IMG/VR virus record: IMGVR_UViG_3300033074_001783
Span: 1-64,000 of that record
Reading direction: 5' to 3' (one strand)
Length of the DNA: 64,000 bases
Source: a virus
Lineage: Duplodnaviria; Caudoviricetes
The position numbers and the translations under genes are program-made. A model generated the notes under the pieces. That model was not told where the DNA came from and did not search any database. It worked only from the letters and a program-made list of their open reading frames with translations. Of the stretch, positions 9,694 to 51,443 are shown in pieces. The first letter of the stretch is position 1. Each line of letters begins with the position of its first letter.

Positions 9694-10386
9694 ATGAAAT
9701 CCCTCCGATTCAATCGCAATCCACTTGTAGTTACAGGCCGCATTGACCAACCTTCACAGGAGCTTGTGAAAAACACTCTTGGGCTTTTCAACGCCTCTCC
9801 TGAAGATACTGTGAAATACGGAGGTGACCTGACTCGGGCCGCTCTTGGTGCTGTGAAACTACACAACGACAGGAAGTATGTTGTGGTTGACACGAAGATC
9901 CACATGCTCATTCCCGGTATGTCTCCTGCAATTCCGGGTTGGCACACAGATGGCGTGCCTCGTGGCCCAAAACGAGACAGCATTCATCACGGAAACCCGG
10001 ATCTGTTCGCTCAAGAATGGGACAGTATTCGTCCTCATCGTTATCACCTGCTTGTTACAGGAGTTGGTTGCCTCACCGAATTTCTTGCCAATCCGAATTG
10101 GGAAATGATGGTGGATGAGGAACAGGATTCTCAGATTTACAACAGGATGAGCAAGCAGGTTAACCAAGAAATTGAGTGCGGTTATGCCAAGAAGCTTTCT
10201 GTTGAAAGCTGCGCTGTCACAGAGTTTGATTGGTGGGATATCCATCGTGGCATTCAGGCAACGACAAAAGAGTGGCGTTTCCTCATGCGAGTGATGGAGT
10301 CAGACTTTGCTCCGCCTGAGCGTGATCTACGAAACGTCATTCGTACTCAACAGCAAGTTTATGCTCCAACAGACTTTGGTTGGTGA
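9694..10386 (+). CDS. Putative 2OG-Fe(II) oxygenase-fold protein
   Basis: PGWHTDG (HxD), distal H (DIHRG) and R; leaderless promoter. Confidence 0.6.
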   Translation: MKSLRFNRNPLVVTGRIDQPSQELVKNTLGLFNASPEDTVKYGGDLTRAALGAVKLHNDRKYVVVDTKIHMLIPGMSPAIPGWHTDGVPRGPKRDSIHHGNPDLFAQEWDSIRPHRYHLLVTGVGCLTEFLANPNWEMMVDEEQDSQIYNRMSKQVNQEIECGYAKKLSVESCAVTEFDWWDIHRGIQATTKEWRFLMRVMESDFAPPERDLRNVIRTQQQVYAPTDFGW

Positions 10387-10578
10387 AGGATGGCTTCAAC
10401 TTACAAAGAAGATACTGCAAATTGTCTTATTAAAGCTGCTTGTGGTTATGGTATGACCAAAGAAAATCTCTTGGAGATCTTTGGTAAACTTACAGACAGC
10501 GAAATTGACGAACTGTTGTATCTCTGTTACAGATGTGCCGAGAAATCTGGTTTTGATACCCTTTACGGATGAACTACC

Positions 10579-10956
10579 ATGAAAAAAACATTTCTTGTAC
10601 CAAGTCTCACAGAAAAAGAAAAAACCATTTTGCTGATTCGGCAAGCTGTGCTTTTTGCCAAAATGTATTTGCCAAAAATCAAACGGAAACCAGAGAATTT
10701 CGTCTCTTACTCTGGCACAACCATTGAAGAGTACGAGATTCTGTTTGACAGATTGGAAAATTGTGTCTGTTCTATGCTAGAAACAGATGACAATGATCTT
10801 ACGACAGCGCAAGTAGTGGCAGTTTTGCTTAACATTGGTCTTGGGAAACCTTTGTACACTTGTCTTGCTTGGTATGGCCAACACGGTGCAACGTACGCGA
10901 AGGTGGCAAACAAAATTGCCGAAGCTGTGAAGACGGAAGAGAAAATTGGCATTTAA
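10579..10956 (+). CDS. Hypothetical protein
   Basis: ORF. Confidence 0.6.
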   Translation: MKKTFLVPSLTEKEKTILLIRQAVLFAKMYLPKIKRKPENFVSYSGTTIEEYEILFDRLENCVCSMLETDDNDLTTAQVVAVLLNIGLGKPLYTCLAWYGQHGATYAKVANKIAEAVKTEEKIGI

Positions 10957-10974
10957 GAAAGAGGCGTGTTTCAA

Positions 10975-11829
10975 ATGAGAAACGACATGCGACATGTGCT
11001 CATTGACCGACCCAGACACAAAAGTTGGGAGAATGGACACGAGCGCAACAAATACAAATCAAATGATGAAGAGGCTCCCAACAAAGAAACCATTCGGCCC
11101 AAAGGGCGCGGAGTTGATCGTAAAGACCTGTCTGACAACCTCGCTCCTTTGTTTCGGTTTTTGAAAAGCAACGTTGGAAGACCTTGGAACAAGGTGTATT
11201 CAGAGATTTGTGAAAACATCTCTCTTGATTCCACGCTGCAACGACACATTCTTGTGCATGTCAAACATGCGGTTCATCAAGATGTTGAAATGGGGGAAGA
11301 CGGACTTCCGTATTCTGTTGTCAAATATTACTACAACGATAACCGGCCACTGATGAGCAGAGGTCATTGGGACAGTTTTTACGTGAATCCCAACACGGGC
11401 ATTCTTTGTGTTTGTCCAAGACAAAAGAAAGAAACAAAGAAAAGCCAAGTGACGCTTATCACATTACCTGACAACAAACTGATTCAATATCGTCTGGTCA
11501 CCAAGAGTAAGTGGTCTGACAAAACTCGCAGTTTTGTACGAGTCACAAGTTGGTGGGGAATTGAGTTGGCAAAGAGACCCGAACCAACAAAACACACGAT
11601 TTACACAAGAGAATGGGATTGTGTCAAGGGTTGTCTGGTCGTCACAAAGACAGAAGAGAAGTTCTATGAAGACGGCAGAGACGTACTGTTTGACAAAGAG
11701 CTCAGAAACCTGTCGGAACAAGAATCGTTCACCTACTACAACAACTACAGGCTTTACGCAATCAGGATGTGGCAACTGAGTTCCAAAGAGCTCAAAACAA
11801 TCAGGAGAACGATTGGTGAGGTCGTCTGA
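10975..11829 (+). CDS. Hypothetical basic protein
   Basis: Long ORF with GAGG upstream. Confidence 0.75.
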   Translation: MRNDMRHVLIDRPRHKSWENGHERNKYKSNDEEAPNKETIRPKGRGVDRKDLSDNLAPLFRFLKSNVGRPWNKVYSEICENISLDSTLQRHILVHVKHAVHQDVEMGEDGLPYSVVKYYYNDNRPLMSRGHWDSFYVNPNTGILCVCPRQKKETKKSQVTLITLPDNKLIQYRLVTKSKWSDKTRSFVRVTSWWGIELAKRPEPTKHTIYTREWDCVKGCLVVTKTEEKFYEDGRDVLFDKELRNLSEQESFTYYNNYRLYAIRMWQLSSKELKTIRRTIGEVV

Positions 11830-28042: not shown

Positions 28043-31033
28043 TTAGATAGCCCCAGCGTTTGTAAGTACAAAGTCAAGTGACATAAATTCAACAGATTTT
28101 ATTGGAGATATCCAAATTTCTCCTCTGATTGTGTTGTTTTCTATATCTGCCTGAGTTGTGAGACTGTCATCTATGACCACTCTGTAGTTTTCAATGCCGT
28201 TGAGTGTTTTGACGTTTTTCAACACAGGGTTTACAAGTTGTCTGAACTTCTCCAAAGTAGAATCTTTATTTGGTTCAAAAACAATCTTGTTTGACAGTTT
28301 TCTAATTTGTCTTCTGATGGAAATAAGAAGACGACGGACGTTGATCCTGTTAAAAGAAGACTGTCTAGCCAGAAGGGTCTTCTGTCCCCACACCGCGATA
28401 CCTTCGCCCGCAAAAGAAGCGATTGGGTTGATGTTGACCGAAGCCAGTGTGTCCATGTTCTGTCTTGACAAAGACACAGACAAACTGTCGGTTGTTCGCA
28501 AGGCGCCTCTAGTGAAGCCCGCAGGTGCAAAGTAAGGGTGACCAACAGAATCATTGATACCGAAAGCACCAAGAACCATTACGGAAGGTGGAACTTGTGT
28601 TACTGTTCCGTTGTAAGAATCTCTAATGTTTCCATCTGGGAAATATGTTGCAACGAAACTTGAATTCAAACCTCTGTTTCTGAAACTTGCCGCAGTGTTT
28701 TTCACGCTTGGCAACTGTGTGTCACTCGTGACAACTGCGTTGTTTATGTCTCTTACTTCAAGATCCATTATGTACAAAGCATCAAATCTATTTTCTGCTG
28801 TTCTGATCGCAAGATCTGTCAGTTGTGAATGCCTGATTCCCGGCATTGCAAGAAGCTGAATGTCTACCTCGGAAGTGTCCGACAATATTTCTAATGCTTT
28901 TGTGTATGCTTTTACAGAAGGTCCGTTTGTTTGACCTCTTGATGGATATGACATCTCTTCTGTGACAGAGGAGTTGTTCAATTCATTCGCGTTCTGGTTG
29001 AACGACAAAGTTCCATTAAATCCACCTTCAACAAAGAATGAAAACTTGGCGATCTGTCTGACGCTTGGGTCCAACAGGTCTGTTATGTTCAAACCTCTTG
29101 TAAGAGCAGAGGTGTCTCTTGTGATGTTTCCCGCTCTAACATAAGACCAGTTTTGCAACTGACCAACATCAGGCAAATCTGTTGTGGCATTGTATACCAC
29201 TTTAATTTTTTCAAGAGAGAAAGCGTTGTTGTTGAAACGATCTGCGTCAAGGATGCTGTTTTCTGCTGTATCCGCAACCCCTTCATTGTCACGCACGACC
29301 ATGTTTTGCCAGATTGTTTGGAAGTTGGGGTAATACTTCACAAAAGAAGCAAGACTTGTGTTTGGGCGTGTGCTTGCGTTTGTTTCCAAAGCACTGTTGA
29401 TTTGTTCAAACTGAACACCCCAATAAAGATTGCGATCTGTTGTTTGTGAAGCGCCCAATCCTTTGGCCAAGTTGAGTCTCATTGGCACAGGAGGTTGAAC
29501 CATTTTTCTCAATGGGTCTGAAACATCCAAATAGGCTGCGTCGGACATCGCCGCGAAGACAGCACTTCCAGAAGTAACAAGGTGCTGAGATCCTCTAAAT
29601 CCCATTGGCAACGCAGTTGGGTTTGTTTCACCGTTTTTAACGTTTTCAGACATCTCAACGCGAATATATTTTGAACGAACCGGATAATCACCATCTGTGA
29701 TTAACTTCTGGCGTTTCTCAGAGGCATCAAAATTGAAATACGTGTGAAGGTCTCCGATGACTTTCGCAATGTACCTTGGAGACTTTGGATCAAGGCTCAG
29801 GCCACGCCAAGGTTCAAGAATTGTTTTAGCGGAATCAACATCTCCAAACGAACGAACAATCAAATCAAAATACCCATACAAATATGTGTCAGTGTTTGAT
29901 GGAACAATGTTTTCTATTGAAATTTTTACCGGCTCACTGGCACCATCGCTTGTAAGCCACACTTTAAACAAGTTTTCCTTGGCCCCACCAAAATTTTGCG
30001 AGAATACCCAAGGAGAGCTTGCAGTCCTATAGCGGTCTTCAAAGTTTTCAAAGTTTGGAACTGTTGCAGAACCAACATTTCTATTCAAAGAACTTGTTGC
30101 AAGAAATGCAATGTTTTCATAACCGTTTGAGTGAACGGCACCAGAAAGGGCAGGAATATAACCAGAACCAGTAACCACGCCCACACTTGGATGAATATCA
30201 AACCAAGAGTAAAGCAAGTGGCCCGCCTCTTCCATTGAATAAGGGTCTGTGTTCAAAACATTTGGGAAATAGTTTGCAGATGAAATATCAAAAGAAGCTG
30301 TAACAACTCTTGGATATCTGGCCGTACCTTTGTGACCATTGAAAAGCAAAACAAACTCTTGCTTACCATTGGTTAGATCAACAGAACCAGAGTGGAATCC
30401 TTGCAAATATCCTGCTTCTGCGCCCTCTGTGTCAATCGCCCCAAGAACAGAACTGACATTTGTGGCAGAAAGAGCCGGGATTACGCCCGACGCAGCAAAC
30501 AAAACTCCTCTCAAAATGACAGGCGTAGCTCCAAGACCCGCATCTGTAAAATGAGAAGATGAAACACTTTGACTCATGCATGTAGCAAGCATGTATGTTC
30601 TGCCGGGAGATCCAAAACCACCAGCGGAACCAGACAGTGTTGCGTATGCGTTGTTACCAAGTGCACCAGACAAAGAAGCTTGTGGCTGTTGTGCGCCAAC
30701 TACAAAACCAGCGTTTGTTACTTTGCCAGCATTGTTGCCGCTTGTGGTTCTGGCTGTGGCATCGCCAACTCCCAAAACTCTAAGTTGAAGAAAAGATTTC
30801 TGCGTTGCCAACCACTCCTTAGCTGAAAGGGGACCAAATTTAGATCCATCTTGAGGAGGACCAAAAATAGTCATATAGTCTGGCATTGTTCCAACTGTGA
30901 TTGGAACGAATGCAGGACCTTTAAGTGTTGTTGAAATTACAGCAGCAGGAATACCAGTTGGCTCTGCTTGTGTAGGACCAGTTTCATCTATTTCGCGTGC
31001 TGTTATCCCCGCGCTATGGAATGTTTGAGACAT
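28043..31033 (-). CDS. gp18: Tail sheath protein (copy 2)
   Basis: N-term SAGITAREID..GPAFVP; C-term FAPAGFTRG, INPI, WGQKT, RINVRRLL. Confidence 0.9.
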   Translation of the reverse strand: MSQTFHSAGITAREIDETGPTQAEPTGIPAAVISTTLKGPAFVPITVGTMPDYMTIFGPPQDGSKFGPLSAKEWLATQKSFLQLRVLGVGDATARTTSGNNAGKVTNAGFVVGAQQPQASLSGALGNNAYATLSGSAGGFGSPGRTYMLATCMSQSVSSSHFTDAGLGATPVILRGVLFAASGVIPALSATNVSSVLGAIDTEGAEAGYLQGFHSGSVDLTNGKQEFVLLFNGHKGTARYPRVVTASFDISSANYFPNVLNTDPYSMEEAGHLLYSWFDIHPSVGVVTGSGYIPALSGAVHSNGYENIAFLATSSLNRNVGSATVPNFENFEDRYRTASSPWVFSQNFGGAKENLFKVWLTSDGASEPVKISIENIVPSNTDTYLYGYFDLIVRSFGDVDSAKTILEPWRGLSLDPKSPRYIAKVIGDLHTYFNFDASEKRQKLITDGDYPVRSKYIRVEMSENVKNGETNPTALPMGFRGSQHLVTSGSAVFAAMSDAAYLDVSDPLRKMVQPPVPMRLNLAKGLGASQTTDRNLYWGVQFEQINSALETNASTRPNTSLASFVKYYPNFQTIWQNMVVRDNEGVADTAENSILDADRFNNNAFSLEKIKVVYNATTDLPDVGQLQNWSYVRAGNITRDTSALTRGLNITDLLDPSVRQIAKFSFFVEGGFNGTLSFNQNANELNNSSVTEEMSYPSRGQTNGPSVKAYTKALEILSDTSEVDIQLLAMPGIRHSQLTDLAIRTAENRFDALYIMDLEVRDINNAVVTSDTQLPSVKNTAASFRNRGLNSSFVATYFPDGNIRDSYNGTVTQVPPSVMVLGAFGINDSVGHPYFAPAGFTRGALRTTDSLSVSLSRQNMDTLASVNINPIASFAGEGIAVWGQKTLLARQSSFNRINVRRLLISIRRQIRKLSNKIVFEPNKDSTLEKFRQLVNPVLKNVKTLNGIENYRVVIDDSLTTQADIENNTIRGEIWISPIKSVEFMSLDFVLTNAGAI

Positions 31034-31084
31034 CAATTGCTCCAGTTGCCTTATAGATAGTTAGCTGCTGGAGATTAAAAAGAC

Positions 31085-31126: not shown

Positions 31127-34100
31127 TCAGATGAAGGTAACGCCAGAGGGCGTCACAATGAAGTCAATGAAAATTCTTTCAATTGATCTAACCGGCACAA
31201 AGGAAATTCTGCCGTTCATTTTGTTGTTGTTGGCATCTACAGAAGAGTTGTTCGTGTCGTCGCAAATGATTTTAAATCTTTCAATTCCTTGTTTGACTTG
31301 AATCATTGACAAACCAGCCGCAGCGTTTGTTGTAAAACGATCATAAAGATCTGGTGTTATGTTGTCAAACTCCAATTTCATAGCGACTGAAACAACAATT
31401 CTTTTTACTTCCAACACCATGCGTTTAATGTTGATTGAGTTCAAAGCGCTTTTTGCCAATTTACCTGTTTTTTGAGAAGAAATGACATATCCTTCTCCGG
31501 GGAATTTGGTAATAGGATTTATCCTTGATTCGTACAACCTATCTCTTTCATCATTGTTGATACGAGTTTGTGTCATGCGAACAAAGTCAAGAGCAGCGCG
31601 GTTGAATCCAGCAGGAGCCCACCAAGGATAAGCCACTTTGTCGTTATAGGCCAAAGCACTCAACGCGCCAACAGAAGCAGGAACGGTTACTCGTCTACCA
31701 CCAGAAACATCATCCATGACGATGTTTGGGAAGTAAAATCCGCTTGCGTCTTTGTCAACCACGCGGTTATCAAAGCTTTCTGCGGTTTTTTCTACGTCTA
31801 TGAATCTACCAATTTCTGTATCAAAAATACGGATACTGTTGAAATCATAGTATGGAATATCGGTTACAGTCATCGCCAATTGATGTTCTGTTTGGATTTT
31901 GTCCAAAGCATAATCAACAACAAGAGGATCTCTTACACCCGGAATTGCAAAAATGTTTGCGTTGTTGATGTAAGGATCTGCCATGATGTTGCAAGCTACC
32001 CTATAAGACGACACGGCGTTGTTGTCTATCCCTATTCCGCCGTAGTTTACACCTGTGGTTGCGCCGGGAGAAGTGTAACTTGCGTGAGCACAACCGTATC
32101 CAGCAGAACTAGATTCAGTTGAAGTAGCACGGTCATTAAATCTTGCAGCAGACTTGTCAAATATGTTGTAACCATTCCATCCACCGAACAATGGCACAGT
32201 GAATTTCGCGTAGTCAGAAAAACGGTTAAAATTTGCCATCTGAGATGTGTTGGTGTAACCGCCGTAAGCCGCAAGAGAAGCAAGTGTTAATCTATCACCC
32301 CAAACACCATCTGTTATGGTGTAAGAAGAAGGATTTACAACTCCGTTACGAATATAAGCGGCTTCCTTCATGTGTTGTTCCGCTGAACCTGTGAGGTTCG
32401 CAAAACTTGTTGTTGACAGAGCCACTCTGGCCAACGTAAATTTGTTGTCGTTAAAACTGTCGGCAAAAGAGCCTGTTACCAACACATCCAATTTTTCTAT
32501 ACCGAGAAATTTTGTGTAGGCAGATACCAATGGGTTTGGTTCGTTTGCAACGTTTGGATTTCCGATGTTGGAAATCCTTTCGTACTTCACGCCCCAAAAC
32601 AGTCTTGAATCTACTATTTCTCCTGCGCCGGGATGTCCCGTAAACGAAGGTGATGTATTAACCTCTCCTCTTGTAACTTTGAAACGATAAGGCAGAGGAG
32701 GCACAATGGAACCTAATACCGCCTTGGCTCCTGTCAAAAATGATCCTGACACGCCGAGTCTAGCTGGTATTGCTGCAACGTTTGTGTCGGTCAAAGAGGT
32801 GTTCGTGTTCAACACGTTCACTCCTCTGTTTCCGAATGGAAGACAGGGTGCAGGTACTTGTTTTCTTTCAACCGCATCTGTCATTTCAATACGGATAAAC
32901 TTGGATTTATTTGGATACTTGCCTGTAGCAACAAGCCTGCGATCATCTTCGTTGTCCACATCAAAATTGTAGTAAACTTTTTTATCACCAATAATTTTAG
33001 CAATGTAATTGTCAGAATTTGGATCAATGGACAGGTTCGTAAACTGCTCAAGAACAATTGGGTCAAAATCCGTGTCGGAAAAATCTCTGACAATCAAAGA
33101 AAATGTTCCGTATTGGTTTTGTGGATCTGTGTTCAGTTTCAAAGAAGAAATACCAATTTTGTATTTTCCGTTTGCCGCTTCCCCATCATCTATCGCTTCT
33201 ACTCTAAAAAGATCATACTCCACTCCACCAAAGGGTTGAGAAATAAACATTGGTGTTTTTGGGGTAGTGAAACGTGTATCAAAACGACCATATGCATCTC
33301 TCATTGTGAGAGAACCAAGGCCGGAAGTGGCAGAAGTTAAACTTGTTCCAGACAAGATCAACACGGCATTCGCGTCTGGGATTGCACCTGACGCAACGGA
33401 GGCTATTTCGTTGTCAACCGCGAAATCAGCATAAAGCAAATGCTTTTCAACAGAAAAACGTTCTGGATCTGTGTTCAAAATTTTACCAACATAATCTGTG
33501 CTGTTGGGGTTCAGCGACGCGGTGTAGATCTTGACTCCAGCGAATCCATCTGTTGTGGCAAACGTGCTACCAGCCGAAGAAGACAAAACCAATTTGAATT
33601 TTCTGTAGGTTGCATTGGTTGATGTGTCGTCAATGGATGCACCATCGTCCACAAGCGGACCGAAAGTCTCGTTTGTGTCCAACACCATAAAGCGTGCATC
33701 TGATGTTGTAAACAAAACTGCTCTTACAAGGTTTGCAACACTGCCAGCCAATGAATAACTTGAGTTGTCGGTAAACATTGGATAGCAAAACGCTTCTGAT
33801 GCGCTAACAATGTGACGTGCTGCCAAAAACTGCACTGCGCCTGCGTGTCTGCCATCCGGCAAACCAACAACCGAACCAGTTACTTGCATACCAGCGTTGC
33901 GCACGGTGCCAGCAAGACGTGTTGTTTCCATGTGAGCGCTCGTGCGGTTGGCTCCTGCGCCAAGAACACGCAAAAATGTCACCGCACGGCCTCTGTCAAG
34001 AATTTGTTTGGCGGCGTAACCGACGGGATATTTTGGATCAAGATTTCCATTTGACTCAATGAAATCTTCTGTGGAACCAAATGTCATGGGAACAAATGCA

Positions 34101-34216
34101 CGACCTTTTTCTGAAGGTCCCACAAGTGCGTAAGGAATTCCTGTTGGCGTAACAACGCGACCTGAGAGATCTATCTCACGATCGTAGTACCCCGGTGATA
34201 TTGAATTTTGAGTCAT
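31127..34216 (-). CDS. gp18: Tail sheath protein (copy 1)
   Basis: SPGYYDREID..GRAFVP; WAPAGFNR, INPI, SQKT, INIKRM. Confidence 0.9.
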   Translation of the reverse strand: MTQNSISPGYYDREIDLSGRVVTPTGIPYALVGPSEKGRAFVPMTFGSTEDFIESNGNLDPKYPVGYAAKQILDRGRAVTFLRVLGAGANRTSAHMETTRLAGTVRNAGMQVTGSVVGLPDGRHAGAVQFLAARHIVSASEAFCYPMFTDNSSYSLAGSVANLVRAVLFTTSDARFMVLDTNETFGPLVDDGASIDDTSTNATYRKFKLVLSSSAGSTFATTDGFAGVKIYTASLNPNSTDYVGKILNTDPERFSVEKHLLYADFAVDNEIASVASGAIPDANAVLILSGTSLTSATSGLGSLTMRDAYGRFDTRFTTPKTPMFISQPFGGVEYDLFRVEAIDDGEAANGKYKIGISSLKLNTDPQNQYGTFSLIVRDFSDTDFDPIVLEQFTNLSIDPNSDNYIAKIIGDKKVYYNFDVDNEDDRRLVATGKYPNKSKFIRIEMTDAVERKQVPAPCLPFGNRGVNVLNTNTSLTDTNVAAIPARLGVSGSFLTGAKAVLGSIVPPLPYRFKVTRGEVNTSPSFTGHPGAGEIVDSRLFWGVKYERISNIGNPNVANEPNPLVSAYTKFLGIEKLDVLVTGSFADSFNDNKFTLARVALSTTSFANLTGSAEQHMKEAAYIRNGVVNPSSYTITDGVWGDRLTLASLAAYGGYTNTSQMANFNRFSDYAKFTVPLFGGWNGYNIFDKSAARFNDRATSTESSSAGYGCAHASYTSPGATTGVNYGGIGIDNNAVSSYRVACNIMADPYINNANIFAIPGVRDPLVVDYALDKIQTEHQLAMTVTDIPYYDFNSIRIFDTEIGRFIDVEKTAESFDNRVVDKDASGFYFPNIVMDDVSGGRRVTVPASVGALSALAYNDKVAYPWWAPAGFNRAALDFVRMTQTRINNDERDRLYESRINPITKFPGEGYVISSQKTGKLAKSALNSINIKRMVLEVKRIVVSVAMKLEFDNITPDLYDRFTTNAAAGLSMIQVKQGIERFKIICDDTNNSSVDANNNKMNGRISFVPVRSIERIFIDFIVTPSGVTFI

Positions 34217-34279
34217 CGTTTGCACCTCTTATTTTATCTGTCAGTAATAGTTAGCCGCTTCGCTTTGCGAATACCTTGG

Positions 34280-38431: not shown

Positions 38432-39322
38432 TCAGTTGTGATCAAGCATTTTGGTCCAACCTTTATATGACCATCTTTGACCTTCAATAACTTGCTGCAA
38501 CTTCCAAGCATCCAAGGCTTGTTCTTCTGAAAATGCTCTCAGGTTGTAAATATTGCGATACAATATACCTGCGGGAGATAACAGGTTCGCTTTTAAAAAC
38601 ATCTTTGATTTTGAAGTTGTTTTGCCGGTGTAATCCAACACTTGTTGGACGCTTGGAATTCTGGCTTCCAGTTTTCGTCTGCGAGTTGTTGCGGTTTTAC
38701 GGTGTGCCAATGGATCAGTACCACCAGTGAGCGTCTGTTTGATTTTTGCTCGCTCTTCTTCGGACATGGAAGCCCAACGACGTTTCCTACATTCTGACAT
38801 TGCCTGTTGGTGTTCTGGTGTTGCCCAAAGAGCCAGGAATTTTTCGCTGGCACGTTTTCGTGCCTCTTCTGTGCCTTGGGCGTCTTTTTGTGCCATAGAA
38901 CGTTTGTTTTTTTGAATTGGATCTGCCCAACTATCTTTGGCAGCTTTGGAACATTTTTGTTGGGTTTCTTCTGGTGTTGAAGAACGATAACCTTCTCTGC
39001 TGATAGCTTCTTTGCGCAAGTTATAACACCGCTGTTGGTTGTCATAATGTTGATCCAAGTAAAGCTGTTCTCGTGCCAAACGTTCTTCTTTGGTTCCTTC
39101 TGTAACTTCCAATATCTCAAACACAAACGCATCTGTTCCACATTTGTTGAAATCATTCAACAAGAAACGATTGCTGTGTTTGTTCATTTCCAATGATTTT
39201 GAATGTTGTTTCCAGCGAGTTTTAAATTCTTTGCAAGATCCAACGTAAATCCTGCCGTTGGTTGTATTGGTGAGTTTGTAGACGCCTGATTTGAGAGAGC
39301 TTCCATCGTAATTGAATTGCAT
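38432..39322 (-). CDS. GIY-YIG homing endonuclease
   Basis: SGVYKLTN..IYVGS, RWKQH, REQLYLD, YNL. Confidence 0.88.
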   Translation of the reverse strand: MQFNYDGSSLKSGVYKLTNTTNGRIYVGSCKEFKTRWKQHSKSLEMNKHSNRFLLNDFNKCGTDAFVFEILEVTEGTKEERLAREQLYLDQHYDNQQRCYNLRKEAISREGYRSSTPEETQQKCSKAAKDSWADPIQKNKRSMAQKDAQGTEEARKRASEKFLALWATPEHQQAMSECRKRRWASMSEEERAKIKQTLTGGTDPLAHRKTATTRRRKLEARIPSVQQVLDYTGKTTSKSKMFLKANLLSPAGILYRNIYNLRAFSEEQALDAWKLQQVIEGQRWSYKGWTKMLDHN

Positions 39323-39356
39323 GAAAAGAAGTATGTTATGAGAGGGGACGTTTGTC

Positions 39357-40628
39357 TTATCGCATTGATATGGCAATTTGAGGTGGCATTGGCACGTACG
39401 AAAGTTGCTTTACCATCTGTTCCGCTCGGCTGGCTTCTTGTTCTGCAAGTTTGTCATAAGTCAAACTTTCAAGTTTTTCTTTCAAACCTGTCATTAGTTT
39501 TTCTTTGTCTTCACGGGCTTGGCTTACGAGATCATCTCCGTTTAGTTGTATTTCTTTATCGCCAGCAGGAATACCTTTGAATTTACCTCTGATGTTGCCG
39601 AGTAATTCTTTGGATAGAGCCAAGGTATATTGCGCAATCCAATTCCTTGCCCAAGGATTTAATGATTTATAGTCAAGTGTTCCAAATGGTATGTTGGCAG
39701 GATTGGAAGCTCCATAAATTGAATCATCTGTAAAAGAAGATCCATGACCAGAAGCGGAACCCATTGTTCCACTTGCAACAAGAGTGTCTGCTAAAGATGG
39801 CAGAGCTTGTTGTTTGTAACCAACTCTTATCCAAAGTTTATCATTTACTCCTGAAATAATACTTGTTGGAATCGGAAAAACCCGAATGTTTCTACCTGAA
39901 ATTTTGTAGCTGTAATGAGACCTTCTAACTTTTTGGCTCATTTTCAGTTCGCCACCCCTTAAAATGTCTTCAAACACTGGCAACACCTGCAAATGAACCC
40001 CTGCGCCCGCCGCAGCAGAAGCACCCAAACCAACCAATTCTGAGTTTTGCATACCGGCCGTTACCTTACCAGAGAACAGGTAGTTGATGGGTGCAATCTG
40101 AAATACTTCGTAAATTTGCAGTTTCCCTTTTGAGCCCAAGGGTTGTAGATCATACAAAGCGTTACCGCTTCCATCTTTAAGGTCTGTGTAAAGGTTGTAA
40201 TCTTGTTGACCTTGCACCAAGGAAATAGAACCAGAATATGAGTCTTGCACCCCACCAAGACCAATGAATCCAGCATATGCTTCACTCATTCTGTCAAGGA
40301 ATTCAAGATTTTGACGAACGTACATGTTCGTCAAGTTCATGTTGGACGGGTTTAGAGGATTGGTAGTATCAATTGAACCAGTAGTAATTCCAAGCAAAGA
40401 AGCAAGATTGGATTTGGCTTGATATTCAATGATCTGCCCTTGAAACTCTCTTGTAGATGATTCAAAAAAGTTCCAGATGATCTTCTTGGTCAGTTCTACT
40501 CCAAGGATATCTTCTCCCAAAGAACGAAGAACGAATGTAACCATTCTGTCGGCATCAAACTGGAAGATTGGGTCACTGTCCCAAAAACCCCAAGATGTAG
40601 GTCTCAGCGTTTCATTAAAATTTGCCAT
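39357..40628 (-). CDS. Neck protein (T4 gp13-like)
   Basis: Start MANFN after CTAGTTA; LG..ILGVEL; WIAQYTLALSKELLGNIRGKF; LNGDDL. Confidence 0.75.
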   Translation of the reverse strand: MANFNETLRPTSWGFWDSDPIFQFDADRMVTFVLRSLGEDILGVELTKKIIWNFFESSTREFQGQIIEYQAKSNLASLLGITTGSIDTTNPLNPSNMNLTNMYVRQNLEFLDRMSEAYAGFIGLGGVQDSYSGSISLVQGQQDYNLYTDLKDGSGNALYDLQPLGSKGKLQIYEVFQIAPINYLFSGKVTAGMQNSELVGLGASAAAGAGVHLQVLPVFEDILRGGELKMSQKVRRSHYSYKISGRNIRVFPIPTSIISGVNDKLWIRVGYKQQALPSLADTLVASGTMGSASGHGSSFTDDSIYGASNPANIPFGTLDYKSLNPWARNWIAQYTLALSKELLGNIRGKFKGIPAGDKEIQLNGDDLVSQAREDKEKLMTGLKEKLESLTYDKLAEQEASRAEQMVKQLSYVPMPPQIAISMR

Positions 40629-40746
40629 GTCCGTAACTAGACCTCTGGCAGATAACCTTACGACACGTAGGAGAATGTGCAGATTGTTGAATTGTTTGAG
40701 AAGAAGAGATTGATTAAGAACTGCGCAAATGAATCTGAAGATTCTC

Positions 40747-41478
40747 TCAGAAAGAGCATAAATCCAACACTTTAACATCCACCCAACAGGTTTCTGGATG
40801 ATCAGCCGTGTCAACCTTGATGATGTCGTTTGGTTGAGAAGGATCAAGCACAACTTGAAACCTGTCACAAAGCACACCGACAACTCCTCCTGTTTGTTCA
40901 ATGAACGGCTCACCCTTGACAAACACAGGACGATACTGCCTTGTGTGTTCAAGAATTGTTCTTGTGTCATAGTTCACAGTGATCCTGTTTTCACTGAATC
41001 TCATGGTCCGTTTGTGAATGAGGTTACCCGCGTTGAAGATAACTTCCACCAACGTTTCATACCAATCTTGAACAGTTCCTTCAAATGAAAGTCCTGTTTT
41101 CTCAAAACCAGTTTCTACGTCAACAAACTTGCCGGGTGCTCTTGACCAGAAACGTGTGCCAAGGAAACCTTCGGGCTCTTGAACAGGAGTTGCTTCATCG
41201 GAGTAATCAAACCCTTTGATCTCACATGACTGCCAAGGTATGTTTTTGTATTCTTCATATCTAGCTTGTAGTTCTTTGTCCAAACGAATATCATCTTTGT
41301 TGTTGTTTGGTACATCAGGGCACGATTGCAAAGGTTGTTCTTTGCACTCAACTCGTTTGAAGTTCTCGTCATACGCAAACAGTCGGTCAGGTTCTTTGCT
41401 CCAAACTGGCGTTGGATAGAAACTGATGGTTTCGGATTTTCGCCAAGGCCCTTCAATTATTGTCATGCCACACAGCAT
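40747..41478 (-). CDS. Truncated major-capsid-protein paralog
   Basis: FWSRAPG, WYETL, IHKRT, TILEHT and G.L..R..V..DP align with the C-terminal half of the MCP at 43070-45013. Confidence 0.8.
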   Translation of the reverse strand: MLCGMTIIEGPWRKSETISFYPTPVWSKEPDRLFAYDENFKRVECKEQPLQSCPDVPNNNKDDIRLDKELQARYEEYKNIPWQSCEIKGFDYSDEATPVQEPEGFLGTRFWSRAPGKFVDVETGFEKTGLSFEGTVQDWYETLVEVIFNAGNLIHKRTMRFSENRITVNYDTRTILEHTRQYRPVFVKGEPFIEQTGGVVGVLCDRFQVVLDPSQPNDIIKVDTADHPETCWVDVKVLDLCSF

Positions 41479-41484
41479 AGTACA

Positions 41485-42285
41485 TCACCCGTTGTATTGA
41501 CTGACATATTTTGGTGGCACTTTCCCATAAATGATGACCGTGTTCGGATCTATACCCTCTTCAACATCAAAGTGCATGTCTTCTATTCCAAGAGTGTGAG
41601 CCAAAGACATTTTCATGTCATATTCCACAACATCTGGTTCTTGACTGACCCTTGGCATGTAACCATCTGTTTTCATGGCATTGGTATCAATCACAACAAT
41701 TCCGCCACTTCCACCATAGTTGTAGCTTTGAGCCACACTTTCTTCTGTTGTTGCAAACACTGCTGCACCAACACCTGTATTTGTCATGCCTCTTGTGTCA
41801 TTTTTCGGAAGAATTCCGACAGACAATACGCCTTGTAGGTCATTTGTTCCGTGTAACAAATTCACAGGTCTTTCCCAAAACTCTTTATTAAATTGCTCGT
41901 CTGGATCACTCAAAGTATATTCAGACTCATGTCCATACGAAATAACTTTGTCCAACCATTTAGCCGCTCCAATTCGTTCATAACCATCTTCACCTGATGG
42001 AACATAAAGGAAATGATTGATTTTTCTATAGTCATCTCCTTCCCAACTGGAGTAGATTGTCTCCTCTGGAAAATCAATTCTTTTGAAGTGAATATTTGGA
42101 TTTTTTGAATGTTCTAGTTGGCTTAGTTTTACAAGAGCTTCATAGGATGGTATTTCATCATAGTTGGCTACAAACCAATCATTCATGATGCCTTTGTAGG
42201 CTTGTTCCATTGGAATAACCATCACATCTTCTGGCAACTCAACGGCTTCAAACAGAAGATTTGTCAATAACGAACGTTTGGTCAT
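41485..42285 (-). CDS. Putative ADP-ribosyltransferase-fold protein (HGT..Y; Tpt1/PARP-like), probably virion-packaged
   Basis: LLHGT, GILP, VFATT, AQSY, VVID, VPPKYV; leader LLTNLLFE. Confidence 0.55.
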   Translation of the reverse strand: MTKRSLLTNLLFEAVELPEDVMVIPMEQAYKGIMNDWFVANYDEIPSYEALVKLSQLEHSKNPNIHFKRIDFPEETIYSSWEGDDYRKINHFLYVPSGEDGYERIGAAKWLDKVISYGHESEYTLSDPDEQFNKEFWERPVNLLHGTNDLQGVLSVGILPKNDTRGMTNTGVGAAVFATTEESVAQSYNYGGSGGIVVIDTNAMKTDGYMPRVSQEPDVVEYDMKMSLAHTLGIEDMHFDVEEGIDPNTVIIYGKVPPKYVSQYNG

Positions 42286-42293
42286 GATGAATG

Positions 42294-42956
42294 TTAACTA
42301 GCAAGTTTCCACCCACCACAAGATGTTTTGGTTTTGCCAGATACCATGAGGTGCATTGCTTTATAGTTGAATCCTCTCTCCATGCACCATTTACGAAGAC
42401 TGGATGACAGGACAACCTTTTCACCTGTTAAGTTGTTAATGAGGTTATAGGTGGGAAACTTTGTGTTGTTCCACCGTTTGTTGGCGTCTTCTGCTGCTTG
42501 TTCGCGGAGAGCAGGATCTTGCCACGCTTGTTTGTTTGCTTGACCAATTGCTGCTTTGTGTTGCTCGTCATGTGGTTGGCAGCGTTTGTCGGTGAGAGGA
42601 TTGCAAGGTTCATTTTGTTTCTTGCCTTTACGTGTATCGCAAACGTCTGGTCGTAAATTGTAACAGCGTGTTTGTTTATCGTACCAAAGGTTCAGATAAA
42701 ACTGTTCTCGTAAGAGTCTCTGTTTTGAATCTTGCACAACCTCAAGAATTTCAATGATGAAATCTTCCGGTTTACATTTATTGAAATCGTTTTGCAGAAA
42801 TGTGTTTGCATGTCGTTGTTTCAACAGCGAATCAAGATGTTGAGGAAATCGTTTCTTAAAACGGTAGGTTGAACCAATGTAAAACCTACCGTTGGTTGTG
42901 TTGGTAAGTTTGTAGACGCCACCCTCGTTGCCAAACGAAGCATAAATGAATTTCAT
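42294..42956 (-). CDS. GIY-YIG homing endonuclease
   Basis: GGVYKLTN..FYIGS, REQFYL; own leaderless promoter TTCACA-N17-TAAGAT-N6-ATG. Confidence 0.88.
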   Translation of the reverse strand: MKFIYASFGNEGGVYKLTNTTNGRFYIGSTYRFKKRFPQHLDSLLKQRHANTFLQNDFNKCKPEDFIIEILEVVQDSKQRLLREQFYLNLWYDKQTRCYNLRPDVCDTRKGKKQNEPCNPLTDKRCQPHDEQHKAAIGQANKQAWQDPALREQAAEDANKRWNNTKFPTYNLINNLTGEKVVLSSSLRKWCMERGFNYKAMHLMVSGKTKTSCGGWKLAS

Positions 42957-43004
42957 GTCTTCATCTTACAGCGCCAAGACCCCAATGTGAAGACCGAATG
43001 AGGC

Positions 43005-43048
43005 AGAAAATGAAGAAGGGAGAGGACTTTCGTCTCTCTCCCTTCTTT
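43005..43048 (-). terminator. Rho-independent terminator after the major capsid gene
   Basis: AAGAAGGGAGAGAGAC-GAAA-GTCCTCTCCCTTCTT followed by CATTTTCT. Confidence 0.75.
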
Positions 43049-43069: not shown

Positions 43070-45013
43070 CTATATGATGCCCATGTCAAGGATGGTGATT
43101 GTTGCGTAGAAGTCCGCACGAACCATCTTCTTGCCGTAGCGAGTCATCACACCCTTGCGAGGTGTAAAGTCCTCTTGGGCATAGATGACAGGGGTGAGGA
43201 TCAGAGGCACGTAAGGTGCGTAGATGTAACCTGTCTCAAGGAAGGTGTTACCCTTCAAACCGATGAGGATTTTGTTGGTTGGGAAGTAAGGATCCTTGTA
43301 AACCACATAGCGGTTGTTAAGAGTTCCTGTTGCTTCTGCACCGACTGTCATTCCTTCTTTTGTCTGACCATCAGCGTCAATCTTGTAATTGGCTCTGTAG
43401 GCTGTTGTGTGTTCAAGAATTGTACACACGTCAGGAGATGTGATCAGGAAGTTACCTGCTCCGCGCAATGTCTTCTTGTGGATGACGTTTGCAGCGTCGC
43501 TGATGGTCTCCAAAAGTGTCTGATACCACTGTTGAATGTCACCTGTGAATGCAGGGCCGGGTGAGAGTGTTCCCTGACGAGTTCCCTCTGTACCTGTCCA
43601 CTTGTTCACGAAACGACCGGGAGCTCTTGACCAGAAGTAGTTCGCAGCAGCCGCTTGGGTAAGCAAGTCGCTAAGAATCTCGCGGTCAATGTCCAAAGTA
43701 ACCATTTCGCTAAGGATGTTTGTCAGTTCTGCCTCAATGTCAATTGAGTAGAAGGCTGTCAAATCCTGTGCCATTTCAGGCGACCAGCGTGCTCTCAACT
43801 TGCGTGAAGTTGCTGTTACGGCCACTGATTCAATCTTGATGTCCACTTCAGGAATCTTGGGACTTGAGTCCAAAGCGAAGTCAGTTTCAAATGAAGGAAT
43901 CATCAGTGTGCTTCCGTCGTTGTTGACTGACAACGCATCTGAAATCACAGTTGAAGCTGTGAGAGCATGAGTTGTCGCATCACCAAGTGTAGGAGCGTTT
44001 CCTGTGTTGCTCAAGGCAACCAAGAACTGAACGTGTGATCCACCAAGAGCATCGGGTGTAAACAAACCTGTGATTGGGTTAAACGAACCACGCTTTGTCT
44101 TGGTACGGAGGTTCATCACCCCTGTGCCACCTTGATAGTTTGTACCCCAAGTTGTTGCACCACCGGGAGTTCCACCAAGACCAGTAATGGCGATTGCGTG
44201 GAGTGTCTCAAGGTCTGCACCAGCGATTTTGCTTGTGAGCTCTGAAGCTGACATGTGCACGAAGCAGAAGTCCAACACGTTGTTCGCAAGATCGTTTTCA
44301 ATTTGTGAATCAAAATCAGCGAAGCGTGCGTTATAGCCAACGAAATCTGCTGTGCTTTGCACTGTGGCGGTTGTTCCGGTTGTCCACACTGAACCTGATG
44401 ACCAGAAACCAACTGAGTCGGTTGGGGCAATCAAGTTAAGGGCTTGCTTGTGTACCTTTGTGAAGGTTGAACCACCAAGACCGTAGTGCCCACCTGTTGC
44501 CAATGAGCTTGAACGAATGTTCGCGCCTGTTGGAAGGTTGTACACTGACTGGCCACGAGTATATGTCTCATTGGCAGAACTTGTTGAAAGTGAAAGACCA
44601 GCGTCTCCACCAACGTTTGAACCATAAGTGTAGTCCAGATAGAAGAGCAGACCCGCAGGCAAGCTCATAGGCTGTACTGAAACCACTTCGTTCGCAATAA
44701 GGCCCGCGAAGACCTTACGCACGATTGGGAATGCGACGTTTGTGAAACCGGCAATTTGACCAGAAGAAGCCAGACCGGCTCCACCTGTTGAAATGCCGTT
44801 TGCCTCTTGAAGAACTTCACGAGCGCTTGGCCCGCGAAGAAGTTCTACCGCTTGGTTTTCAAGCAGTTTTGCCATCTTGTCTCGGTTGATTCCTGAAAGT
44901 CCTTGCAAAAGACCTGTTTCGGCCCACTTAGCCGTCATGCGGGCTGTGTCATGACCGAGCCCGCGTCGGCTCACGCCTTCCGCAAGTTGGTTTAGTGTGA
45001 ATTGTCTCGCCAT
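43070..45013 (-). CDS. gp23: Major capsid protein, T4 gp23-like
   Basis: LLENQ, VSVQPMSLPAGLLFYLD, RKLRARWSPEMAQDL, IDREIL, GYIYAPYVP, MTRYG. Confidence 0.95.
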   Translation of the reverse strand: MARQFTLNQLAEGVSRRGLGHDTARMTAKWAETGLLQGLSGINRDKMAKLLENQAVELLRGPSAREVLQEANGISTGGAGLASSGQIAGFTNVAFPIVRKVFAGLIANEVVSVQPMSLPAGLLFYLDYTYGSNVGGDAGLSLSTSSANETYTRGQSVYNLPTGANIRSSSLATGGHYGLGGSTFTKVHKQALNLIAPTDSVGFWSSGSVWTTGTTATVQSTADFVGYNARFADFDSQIENDLANNVLDFCFVHMSASELTSKIAGADLETLHAIAITGLGGTPGGATTWGTNYQGGTGVMNLRTKTKRGSFNPITGLFTPDALGGSHVQFLVALSNTGNAPTLGDATTHALTASTVISDALSVNNDGSTLMIPSFETDFALDSSPKIPEVDIKIESVAVTATSRKLRARWSPEMAQDLTAFYSIDIEAELTNILSEMVTLDIDREILSDLLTQAAAANYFWSRAPGRFVNKWTGTEGTRQGTLSPGPAFTGDIQQWYQTLLETISDAANVIHKKTLRGAGNFLITSPDVCTILEHTTAYRANYKIDADGQTKEGMTVGAEATGTLNNRYVVYKDPYFPTNKILIGLKGNTFLETGYIYAPYVPLILTPVIYAQEDFTPRKGVMTRYGKKMVRADFYATITILDMGII

Positions 45014-45049
45014 TTTAGTTGTGCTCCCTATATTTCTTCTTGTTTCTAA

Positions 45050-47134
45050 CTAGACTTTGCTAGCGCTAATTCCTGCCAAACGCATCCAACGTTCTCTTGT
45101 TGGAGCGTATTCTTTATTTTCTGTTACGTTTGTGCTCTCATTCAAAGGAGCGCTTCCTGATTTCACTGTTGTAGAAGATGAACCAGAGGTTGTGACCTTC
45201 TTTGGTGAACGGTGCTCGTCAAGAACTTTCTTTACACGAGAATAAACTTCTTTCGCTTCCGCGAATGTTGAAGCCTCATCCATGTAACCAGTGATTTTCT
45301 TTTTCTGGTTTACAGACAAAGACTCAAGAGCAAGTAGTTTGTTCAAGTACAATGACTTGGCTGCAAGCAGTTTCATCTCTTGCAATTCTCTTTTTGTGTT
45401 GCGAAGTTGAACAGATTCCTTCACAACTGGTTTGCGTGATTCTGCAACAGGAGGTGAAATCTCTTCTTCCTCTTCATCATCGGCCAAAGGAGAACCATCG
45501 TCGTTGGTGATTTCATATTCCTCGTCACCATCTGGTTCACTGTGAGCTCCACCAAAATCATCGCCCTCTTCGTCAGAAGGTAAAGATGAAGCCATCGCGG
45601 GTTCAACAGGGTTGCTAACGCTTACGCCGCCGTTGCTGTCAACCTTGATGGTAACAGTAACACCACCATCACTACCTGCACCAAGCTCTTCTGCTTGCAT
45701 ACCGCACTCTTTGAGAGCTTTTGCGGCTTCTTTCAATGCCTTCAGTTTTGCAGCAAACTTTTTCTTTGCTTCCATTACAGCAACCGCGTTGGTGTTTACG
45801 GGTTTGCCGGGTGTCACTTTGTCCATGCCATCTGTCACTTTGTCGCCAAGGATTTCAGCGGCTTCGCCCATTGCTGGCTCTGACTCTTCGCTGTCCCCAA
45901 ACATTTCGCGAAGTTCTGCTTCAAGTTGCATGGCTTCTATGTCTTCTTCAAGATACCCAGAAGCGCCACCAACTTTAAGTGAATCTTCTTTGCCGGGATC
46001 TTTAATGTTTGATTCAGATGCTTTCATCGCGTGTTTGCCAGCGGCATTCTCGGTGTCAAGCTCTGCATCACCTTTTGGTTTCTCGGTACTATCACCGAAA
46101 CCAGCGCTACCTTTTGTTGGAGGTGCATTTTCAAAAAGACCTCTTGCAAATTTTCTCAAGTTTTCGCTACTCATTTTGTTCGTGTCCTTGTTCTTCGGAT
46201 ACGGATAACTATTGGTGTTTTCCGTAGATTCCTGAAGTTGTCTGTATAAACCTTCAAGACGATTTTCTTGAAGGCGTCCAAGTCGTTGAGGCACAAGTTT
46301 ATTTTCAACAAGTTTTTCCAATTTCCCCAACAAACCAAAGAGGTGTTGTTCCATTGCAAATTTTTGCATTTTTGTTGGTTTGGAGTTCAACAAAATATGA
46401 CTCTGTGTTCGTTTGACGGATTCCTTGAAATCTTCGTATGTAATTGCCTCTGTTTGTGTGTCTTCTTCCCCAAAAGGAGGCATGGAAGCATCTGTGTCTT
46501 CCCCTGTGGCCACAACGGGTGCAGGGGTTTCAGATGGGAATCCTCCAATTGGAGTTGTTGGTTCAGTTGGTTCTCCAACCCCCACGCCACCCGTCAAGAC
46601 AGGTTCTTGCCCTGTTGCACTCATTTGTGTCCAAAGGTCATCAAGAGAAACTACAATTTGTCCCGAAGCGTCTGGCAATGGAACGCTGCCAAGGCTTGCT
46701 GATGGAACACTGATTGGAGCTCCGGGGCCTTCAATGGAGGGGGCGCCAATGTTGGCAGGCATACCAGCCTCGGGCGCAACTGGACCGGGAGCAGGAGGCA
46801 CCGCTGGTGGTGGAGCGGGAGGCATTGCTTCTGGTGTGGGCACCGCGGAAGGGGTAGGAGCAGGCGCAGGAGGAGGAACAGCGGGTGGAGAACCCGGAGG
46901 TGCAGCAGCAGGAGGAGGAGCCGAGGCATCTCCTGTCACGTCCGCAAAAGGATCTTCTTCCTCCTGCAAATCATTCATCCCTTCTGTGAGATTGCTAAGG
47001 CTTTGGTTCAATTCTTTTTCAATCAAAGGTGTTATGGCTTCAATGATTGCATTTTTCGCTTGATGAAACGCTGCTTCCTTGTAGCGACCAACTTCTACAA
47101 GTGCTTCATCGTAAAGAGGACTGGAGTTATTCAT
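45050..47134 (-). CDS. Prohead core/scaffold protein (gp22-like) with a Pro/Ala-rich insertion
   Basis: Immediately upstream of MCP; acidic coiled coil; AKSLYLNKL; C-term RWMRLAGI. Confidence 0.75.
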   Translation of the reverse strand: MNNSSPLYDEALVEVGRYKEAAFHQAKNAIIEAITPLIEKELNQSLSNLTEGMNDLQEEEDPFADVTGDASAPPPAAAPPGSPPAVPPPAPAPTPSAVPTPEAMPPAPPPAVPPAPGPVAPEAGMPANIGAPSIEGPGAPISVPSASLGSVPLPDASGQIVVSLDDLWTQMSATGQEPVLTGGVGVGEPTEPTTPIGGFPSETPAPVVATGEDTDASMPPFGEEDTQTEAITYEDFKESVKRTQSHILLNSKPTKMQKFAMEQHLFGLLGKLEKLVENKLVPQRLGRLQENRLEGLYRQLQESTENTNSYPYPKNKDTNKMSSENLRKFARGLFENAPPTKGSAGFGDSTEKPKGDAELDTENAAGKHAMKASESNIKDPGKEDSLKVGGASGYLEEDIEAMQLEAELREMFGDSEESEPAMGEAAEILGDKVTDGMDKVTPGKPVNTNAVAVMEAKKKFAAKLKALKEAAKALKECGMQAEELGAGSDGGVTVTIKVDSNGGVSVSNPVEPAMASSLPSDEEGDDFGGAHSEPDGDEEYEITNDDGSPLADDEEEEEISPPVAESRKPVVKESVQLRNTKRELQEMKLLAAKSLYLNKLLALESLSVNQKKKITGYMDEASTFAEAKEVYSRVKKVLDEHRSPKKVTTSGSSSTTVKSGSAPLNESTNVTENKEYAPTRERWMRLAGISASKV

Positions 47135-51417: not shown

Positions 51418-51443
51418 GCGGGTTTAACTAGCCCGCATGGGTT

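Follow-up and report, generated by a model that had tools for sequence, protein, structure and literature searches.

The window analysed here comprises 64,000 nucleotides and is the first 64 kb of the 118,963-bp IMG/VR record IMGVR_UViG_3300033074_001783. The completeness of this record is estimated at 32% by CheckV and therefore a very large phage is its source; it is a large uncultured phage of the T4-like type. A T4-type morphogenesis block is located on the minus strand, at about 25-52 kb of the window. Between the gene for the major capsid protein (MCP) and a gp13-like neck gene, this block contains an open reading frame (ORF) of 243 amino acids (aa), ORF243, which encodes a stand-alone copy of a single MCP domain, the A domain of the HK97 fold, and is referred to as a mini-MCP. 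The features on which this relation is based are the following:

40747-41478 (stop included), minus strand: ORF243, mini-MCP, 243 aa, ATG start (ORF call, BLASTP)
40750-41181, minus strand: codons 100-243 of ORF243, stand-alone HK97-fold A domain with the MCP-type C-terminal strand VKVLDL (AlphaFold2 (AF2), hhalign, dN/dS)
41182-41478, minus strand: codons 1-99 of ORF243, lineage-specific N-terminal extension, mostly disordered (AF2; homology searches)
43070-45013, minus strand: MCP of the T4 gp23 family, 647 aa, the parent fold (PF07068, 257 bits; phrog_138)
43262-43636, minus strand: codons 460-584 of the MCP, paralogous to residues 110-222 of ORF243 (BLASTP)

Relation of ORF243 to the major capsid protein

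ORF243 was described in a first-pass annotation, made from the sequence alone, as a stand-alone fragment of the MCP, and this description holds. The ORF is intact with an ATG start, and residues 110-222 align by BLASTP with residues 460-584 of the MCP at 41% identity and 56% positives over 125 residues (E 4e-23), which is far beyond chance. All the shared motifs that had been named (FWSRAPG, WYETL/WYQTL, IHKRTMR/IHKKTLR and TILEHT) lie inside this alignment, and the motifs reported as lost (QPM, RKL..W..E and YAPY) indeed occur in the MCP but not in ORF243. When the whole record was searched with ORF243, only ORF243 itself and the MCP were matched. Homology of the A domain to the MCP is assigned by hhalign with a probability of 99.6-100%, and the hhalign alignments of ORF243 to other mini-MCPs span residues 100-240.

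Multiple alignment shows that the (Y/F)WSRAPGKFV strand, the WYETLVE helix, the TILEH helix and the G.L.NRF.V hairpin are kept in this order, and that the hairpin joins directly to the last strand of the MCP (V.VLD...). The P-domain hairpin of the MCP, which comprises about 45 residues (YAPYVPL...TPRKGVMTRYGKKMV), is missing, as is everything N-terminal of the A domain. In this way, ORF243 retains about 140 of the roughly 640 MCP residues. It is devoid of the N-arm, E-loop, insertion domain, spine helix and P-domain hairpin and therefore cannot be a shell subunit; the RKL..W..E strand is also absent. Against PF07068, ORF243 scores 18.4 bits (E 0.0015, residues 133-222 only), which is below the gathering threshold of 24.4, and no match was found in PHROGs. 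The A-domain homology and the invariant motifs are common to ORF243 and the gp23 family (PF07068, phrog_138), whereas the complete HK97 fold of this family is absent from ORF243. ORF243 is thus homologous to the gp23 family without being a capsid protein in the structural sense.

The predicted structure agrees with these alignments. In the AF2 model, built from a 63-sequence alignment, residues 100-243 have a predicted local distance difference test score (pLDDT) of >90, residues 1-57 are disordered, and one helix is present at residues 60-78. The model superposes on residues 313-521 of T4 gp23 with Z 11.8 and a root-mean-square deviation of 2.3 A over 114 residues, on T4 gp24 (PDB 1yue) with Z 9.3 and on residues 233-383 of HK97 gp5 with Z 7.7; the top Foldseek matches are all HK97-fold capsids or encapsulins. 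As modelled, the ordered part of ORF243 is the A domain together with the last strand of the MCP, excised at domain boundaries and with the P-domain hairpin cleanly removed. The earlier statement that the region roughly corresponds to the A domain was right and can be sharpened to gp23 residues 313-521 by the superposition. The identity of ORF243 as a stand-alone MCP A-domain protein is virtually certain.

The head module around ORF243

The genes of the morphogenesis block are arranged in the order portal (PF07230), prohead protease (PF03420), a 694-aa protein, MCP, the homing endonuclease gene HE1, ORF266, ORF243, the gp13-like neck gene and the second homing endonuclease gene HE2, followed by several small genes and two sheath-like genes. 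Two adjoining genes of about 1000 aa, each with a tail-sheath C-terminal domain, are located at 28043-31036 and 31127-34225 (minus strand), and this pair recurs in the contigs L009/L010. The nearest MCPs from GenBank phages are 34-46% identical and belong to Microcystis phage Mel-JY01, the Flavobacterium 'immuto' phages and uncultured huge phages; no GenBank phage with a DNA match to the window was found by megablast. The features surrounding ORF243 are:

42294-42956, minus strand: HE1, GIY-YIG homing endonuclease between the MCP and ORF266 (PF01541, 35 bits; phrog_314)
41485-42285, minus strand: ORF266, upstream gene of a putative two-gene unit; no family match; ends in TGA in frame with ORF243
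39357-40628, minus strand: gp13-like neck/head-completion gene, 423 aa, which bounds the variable slot (PF26809 on orthologues)
38432-39376, minus strand: HE2, second GIY-YIG homing endonuclease, after gp13 (Pfam/PHROG searches)
41334-43010, minus strand: tract 99.8% identical to L003:1-1677, covering HE1, ORF266 and the first 48 codons of ORF243 (blastn)
42295-42301, minus strand: CTAGTTA, late-promoter-like, 9 nt before ORF266 (motif scan)
51425-51431, 45047-45053, 42295-42301 and 40634-40640, minus strand: examples of the motif CTA[AGT][TC]TA (motif scan)

The same gene order, HE1-ORF266-mini-gp13-HE2, is found in the Logan contig L003. Its mini-MCP is 84% identical to ORF243, and the frame is intact in both copies. 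Outside the 99.8% tract, the remaining region common to the window and L003 (38432-41278, 2.85 kb) is 92% identical, and the junction of the two tracts consists of a 22-codon indel and a substitution inside the N-terminal extension of ORF243. From this pattern, the 99.8% tract looks like a recent recombination, homing or co-conversion tract of the GIY-YIG cassette that ends within ORF243. ORF266 has no Pfam, PHROG or PDB sequence match, and of about 170 loci just two, the window and L003, contain it. Since it lies with HE1 in the 99.8% tract and occurs only in these two places, it is taken to have been inserted recently between the MCP and a mini-MCP of older date. By eye, ORF266 has an H...Y...E-like arrangement (HGT, AQSY, QEPD) and a leader ending in LFE.

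The A domain of ORF243 has a ratio of nonsynonymous to synonymous substitution rates (dN/dS) of 0.145 against L003 (131 codons, dS 0.36, Nei-Gojobori), and the corresponding values in the 92% part are 0.038 for gp13 and 0.216 for HE2. ORF243 is an intact, selectively maintained gene. A dN/dS near 1 had been proposed as the mark of a duplication relic, and with the value observed and a large conserved family this reading fails. A functionless remnant of a tandem MCP duplication, or of recombination driven by homing endonucleases, might be expected where two GIY-YIG endonucleases flank a region, a recombination tract ends in the gene at an indel and the Pfam score is below threshold. However, the ORF is intact and under the constraint just described, its fold is predicted with confidence, its domain-precise boundaries recur in about 100 clusters and its placement is conserved in distant phages, so that a remnant is highly improbable.

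In the record, 19 copies of the motif CTA[AGT][TC]TA were counted on the minus strand against 4 on the plus strand, and the motif is positioned 5-45 nt upstream of the portal, MCP, gp13, ORF266 and other structural genes. Because of this strand bias and position, it is treated as a late-promoter-like element and may be what the phage lineage uses as its late promoter. The absence of a late-promoter motif upstream of ORF243, already reported in the first reading of the sequence, was borne out: no copy of CTA[AGT][TC]TA lies directly upstream of ORF243, and the recurrent motif is found 9 nt before ORF266 instead. The gp13 gene has its own CTAGTTA at 40634-40640 (minus strand), 118 nt downstream of ORF243. 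ORF243 starts 6 nt after the TGA of ORF266, and its likely ribosome-binding site is a Shine-Dalgarno-like GGGTGA that overlaps the ORF266 stop, 7 nt before the ATG. Beside ORF243, no sigma-70 promoter or terminator was found above shuffled expectation. A TATGCT box had also been proposed in front of a second ATG at 41466; this ATG exists and would give a protein starting with MTIIE..., but the box overlaps the first ATG and is not called by the sigma-70 scan. As ORF243 has no motif of its own, follows ORF266 after 6 nt and is followed by a gene with its own motif, ORF266 and ORF243 probably form a two-gene late transcript from the CTAGTTA motif, timed with the MCP.

At 41479-41487 (minus strand), ORF266 and ORF243 are in frame and separated by one TGA and two codons, and the same is seen in L003. 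A read-through fusion of the two (513 aa) is conceivable but has no support: no opal-suppressor tRNA was found in the window, the long N terminus of the homologue P0085 is unrelated to ORF266, and ORF266 is absent from all loci other than these two.

The mini-MCP family and its genomic settings

Proteins were assigned to the mini-MCP family by their own start, the core motifs WxRxPG...WYET, the absence of the P-domain hairpin, a C-terminal V.VLD strand and a length of <300 aa. ORF243 shows all these features and scores 170 bits against the hidden Markov model (HMM) of the family A domain. A word-indexed search with five short homologues as queries gave 18 clusters without the P-domain hairpin. 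In an exhaustive HMMER search of 1.84 billion representative proteins, 608 matches were obtained at E <= 1e-3, and the best 150 of these are mostly 125-260 aa long, start near the WSRxPG motif and end with the V.VLD strand. By the motif rules, 97 of the 262 collected proteins are mini-MCPs (median 173 aa), with at most 30 residues before the domain in 70 and >60 residues in 22. The family comprises about 100 sequence clusters of 125-295 aa and is metagenomic. No mini-MCP was found in GenBank phages by megablast and tblastn. A collection of prokaryotic metagenome-assembled genomes gave 8 matches, all full-length or truncated MCPs and none a mini-MCP, and the ESM Atlas gave no usable match. In the literature searched, neither a stand-alone A-domain protein nor a capsid-derived decoy was found described. 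When 21 members were compared with PHROGs, 5 matched, all to phrog_138 'major head protein'; this result is uninformative as to an origin from gp24 rather than gp23, which was considered and not retained. ORF243 is an MCP paralogue reduced to one domain and belongs to a sizeable, unannotated family.

The members differ mainly in what precedes the A domain. Minimal members such as P0159, P0142 and P0204 come from short contigs (about 1 kb), whereas in P0085 the A domain is preceded by 287 aa and in P0191 the N-terminal part is Cys-rich. The Type B mini-MCPs carry a conserved, confidently predicted N domain of about 100 aa (helix 8-37, strands, helix 56-72) with no detectable relation to the MCP or the ORF243 N terminus. 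Two distant A-domain-only proteins, P0204 and P0185 (L164:419-1159), start with signal peptides resembling those of twin-arginine translocation (Tat), suggesting export; both are encoded on short contigs that may be of phage or cellular origin. A 'PEIDI' segment near the C terminus of some members was considered as a relocated E-loop strand of the MCP and rejected, since no second hhalign match was obtained.

In the Type B member P0007, the A-domain part of the model (m00d3739f247c) superposes on 85 of the 94 residues of PF0899 from Pyrococcus furiosus (PDB 2pk8) with Z 8.0. PF0899 is an archaeal, cellular protein for which no sequence relation to the mini-MCPs is shown, and it is not among the top matches of the ORF243 model. 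On this superposition, PF0899 may represent a stand-alone protein of cellular origin whose fold resembles that of the A domain.

For the N terminus of ORF243, the description as unrelated is supported: residues 1-105 match only the near-identical L003 copy, apart from a weak alignment of residues 52-105 to P0085. Residues 7-9 (IIE) fit the L/I-x-E pattern of prohead protease sites; the leader is very short, and the probability of a chance match is estimated at about 0.1. A similar h-h-E is found at the N termini of Type B mini-MCPs, and many members have none. Kinship of the ORF243 N terminus with the Type B N domain or the MCP was suggested by eye, since MTIIE resembles MTIVE/MTVVE and the QLAEG of the MCP, but it was not confirmed: hhalign aligns the A domain only, and the Type B N-domain HMM has no match in this genome at E <= 10.

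Mini-MCP genes have been found in two settings. The first is the head module, in which the mini-MCP lies after the MCP and before gp13, as in the window, L003, L004, L009/L010, L011, L013 and L015. The mini-MCP directly follows the MCP gene in L004, L009, L011, L013 and L015; in the window, HE1 and ORF266 intervene. The gene downstream of the mini-MCP encodes a GNAT-domain protein in L004 and L015. In L015, two diverged mini-MCPs (10024-10824 and 10857-11510) are arranged in tandem right after the MCP, and the GNAT-domain protein follows.

The second setting, which was not foreseen by the first-pass annotation, consists of sugar-biosynthesis islands on five contigs: the P0004 contig, L006, L007, L094 and L111. 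Here, the mini-MCP always lies between a weakly CgeB-like glycosyltransferase and a UDP-glucose/GDP-mannose dehydrogenase, with DegT, NadM-NUDIX and NAMPT genes (nicotinamide adenine dinucleotide salvage) nearby. Most of these members carry the N domain of about 100 aa, and the L094 member (143 aa) is a bare A domain. Their positions are:

L006:10001-10705, sugar-island mini-MCP
L007:10001-10726, sugar-island mini-MCP
L094:8001-8432, sugar-island mini-MCP
L111:7713-8411, sugar-island mini-MCP

This setting hints at a link of capsid-like proteins with a phage-made glycan. One possible role would be that of an adaptor or pseudo-substrate for capsid-modifying enzymes (a glycosyltransferase, an acetyltransferase or an ADP-ribosyltransferase-like neighbour), in which the mini-MCP recruits or regulates the enzyme or is itself the acceptor. 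The fixed glycosyltransferase-mini-dehydrogenase order is kept on five independent contigs across about 40% identity, even for the 143-aa form; a GNAT-domain gene lies next downstream in L004 and L015; and ORF243 is translationally coupled to ORF266 in the window. However, the neighbouring enzymes are of unrelated classes, ORF266 is a recent insertion limited to the window and L003, and the 10 largest ORFs tested from the slot between MCP and gp13 in relatives include no sugar genes. In addition, the synteny of the islands could reflect vertical inheritance in one phage lineage, and no precedent is known for substrate-mimic adaptors of this kind. Such a role is considered unlikely.

In the head module, mini-MCPs are rare and evolve fast. 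Of about 50 MCP-baited IMG/VR head modules with enough downstream DNA, only L013 and L015 contain one, so that the gene is absent from about 96% of related modules of near-identical architecture. The MCP-to-gp13 interval ranges from 96 bp to >7 kb among relatives (L012-L091). Apart from unassigned genes, this slot also contains genes for VWA-domain proteins, for homing endonucleases, some of which are fused to Mom-like domains, and for many small proteins whose amphipathic leader ends in L/I-x-E. In phage pairs whose MCPs are 91-93% identical (dN 0.06-0.08), the mini-MCPs are 40-60% identical (dN 0.33-0.63). In a maximum-likelihood tree of A domains, from a quick search with support by the Shimodaira-Hasegawa-like approximate likelihood ratio test (SH-aLRT) only, the MCPs form a tight, short-branched clade and the mini-MCPs lie outside it on long branches, with an unsafe deep order. 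The exception is P0085, which nests beside the MCP of the window and, from this placement, may be a younger derivation or a product of gene conversion. Overall, the mini-MCPs are accessory, and their rate of evolution exceeds that of the MCP several-fold.

These observations bear on a function in head assembly. In T4, the MCP paralogue gp24 is encoded just downstream of gene 23, and MCP duplicates were known earlier to become vertex proteins in this way. Like gp24, ORF243 is derived from the MCP, shares the A-domain fold and has its gene behind that of the MCP in a head module of the T4 type. In contrast, gp24 is a full HK97-fold subunit that builds pentons, whereas ORF243, with 243 aa, has no shell-linking elements; and gp24 is a core gene, whereas the mini-MCP is found in 2 of about 50 related head modules and is fast-evolving. 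A stoichiometric vertex protein, a possibility raised in the first-pass annotation, or an essential assembly role is therefore unlikely. The mini-MCP could also act as a modulator that binds or shields the capsomer-forming face of free MCP and delays or steers polymerisation, preventing polyheads or controlling size or vertices. The retained invariant A-domain motif, the putative co-expression with the MCP and the position corresponding to that of T4 gp24 would be in line with this, but a partner of a 91-93% conserved MCP should not diverge to 40-60% identity, and neither the absence from most related modules nor the missing shell-linking elements fits such a role. It is regarded as quite unlikely.

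The positions that are invariant in both MCPs and mini-MCPs are WSRxPG.FV.K.TG, GP.F.G.V..WYET..E..D, D171, I175, L176, G201, R206 and D239. A further set of positions, invariant in MCPs alone, is concentrated in two places: the latter half of the long helix together with the next strand, and the DPYFP.NK.L.G.KGG run into the P-domain hairpin. From this distribution, the mini-MCPs appear to have lost the shell-building constraints and to have kept one strand-loop-helix surface. Such a protein might serve as a weapon against co-infecting relatives, a dominant-negative A domain that poisons the capsomers of a competitor, as in the case of the Gag-derived Fv1. Truncated capsid proteins are classic dominant negatives, as retroviral Gag-derived factors illustrate, and the family is accessory, diversifying and sometimes duplicated. 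Yet all MCPs of the clade, that of the phage itself among them, share an invariant interface motif, so that it is hard to see how self and rival would be told apart, and the similarity of ORF243 to foreign MCPs does not exceed that to the MCP of its own phage. Use as a weapon is very unlikely.

Possible A-domain mimicry and the biology of mini-MCPs

Multiple host defences are able to sense capsid proteins, including Avs7/8/10, CapRel and Lit. Mini-MCPs keep WSRxPGxFVxKxTG...GPxFxGxVxxWYETxxE while the rest diverges and are therefore read as soluble mimics of the A domain. Tentatively, the interpretation favoured here is that ORF243 would be a decoy or competitor for host factors that sense the capsid, a decoy being one of the roles suggested in the first-pass annotation. 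It is preferred because of the fast evolutionary rate, the patchy distribution, the tandem copies, the accessory slot and the retained invariant face. ORF243 would be made late, together with the MCP, from the ORF266-ORF243 transcript and would occupy binding sites meant for the A domain of the MCP. The likeliest partner would be an Avs-type sensor or another host factor able to recognise the conserved face with which free MCP forms capsomers, and the variable N-terminal extension would add a lineage-specific function. The Avs7/8/10 sensors have been reported to bind the capsomer-forming face of the A domain, and the decoy reading fits this footprint. As in known anti-defence decoys and sponges, accessory-gene behaviour is seen, here combined with the surface targeted by Avs7/8/10, whereas no capsid-derived decoy was found in the literature.

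Several points weigh against a decoy. No cultured phage among the GenBank phages carries a mini-MCP, and a mimic that binds an Avs-type sensor might activate it instead of blocking it. The fixed place beside a CgeB-like glycosyltransferase in the sugar islands is not explained by a decoy, and the Tat-like signal peptides of two distant members do not fit a cytoplasmic one. The conserved motif may be needed just for folding. Also, the late head-module position and the possible L/I-x-E site fit a virion-associated protein equally well.

Such a protein could be a capsid-bound accessory comparable to Hoc of T4, in which a constant capsid-binding module is combined with variable domains. The A domain would dock on the capsid or prohead, inside or outside, and the N-terminal module would be displayed or delivered, perhaps in glycosylated form in some members. 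The T4 proteins Hoc and Soc are non-essential, late, patchy and fast-evolving, as is proposed for the mini-MCPs, and a patchy, fast-evolving distribution is typical of non-essential decoration proteins in general. The late gene place between the MCP and gp13, among genes with head-targeting-like leaders, and the variable N-terminal module on a constant C-terminal module (P0085, P0191 and Type B) are in agreement with this role; the sugar-island context could mean a glycoprotein, and the IIE at residues 7-9 fits the prohead-protease rule. However, no mechanism is known by which a lone A domain could be placed on a closed HK97 lattice with all subunits left in position, and nothing resembling Hoc, Soc or another decoration protein in sequence or fold emerged from the PHROGs, Pfam and fold searches. 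In about 70 of the 97 mini-MCPs, almost no N-terminal module is available for display, and the protease-site match has the chance probability estimated above. A capsid-bound accessory is considered somewhat unlikely.

Extending the decoy reading from ORF243 to the family, the mini-MCPs could be a widespread counter-defence class that soaks up or jams sensors such as Avs7/8/10, or shields free MCP during assembly. This extension is speculative and somewhat unlikely. If true, this would be the first case of an anti-defence decoy family that arose from a structural protein.

The mini-MCPs also expose a gap in annotation, as Pfam and PHROGs miss or mislabel them and most members are unnamed in public databases. 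In this family, MCP duplication gave an autonomously folding A domain that does not build a shell and that has been selected in about 100 clusters. A natural, soluble and fast-diversifying copy of the A domain may be used as a probe of capsid sensing and its evasion, or of capsomer assembly or capsid modification.

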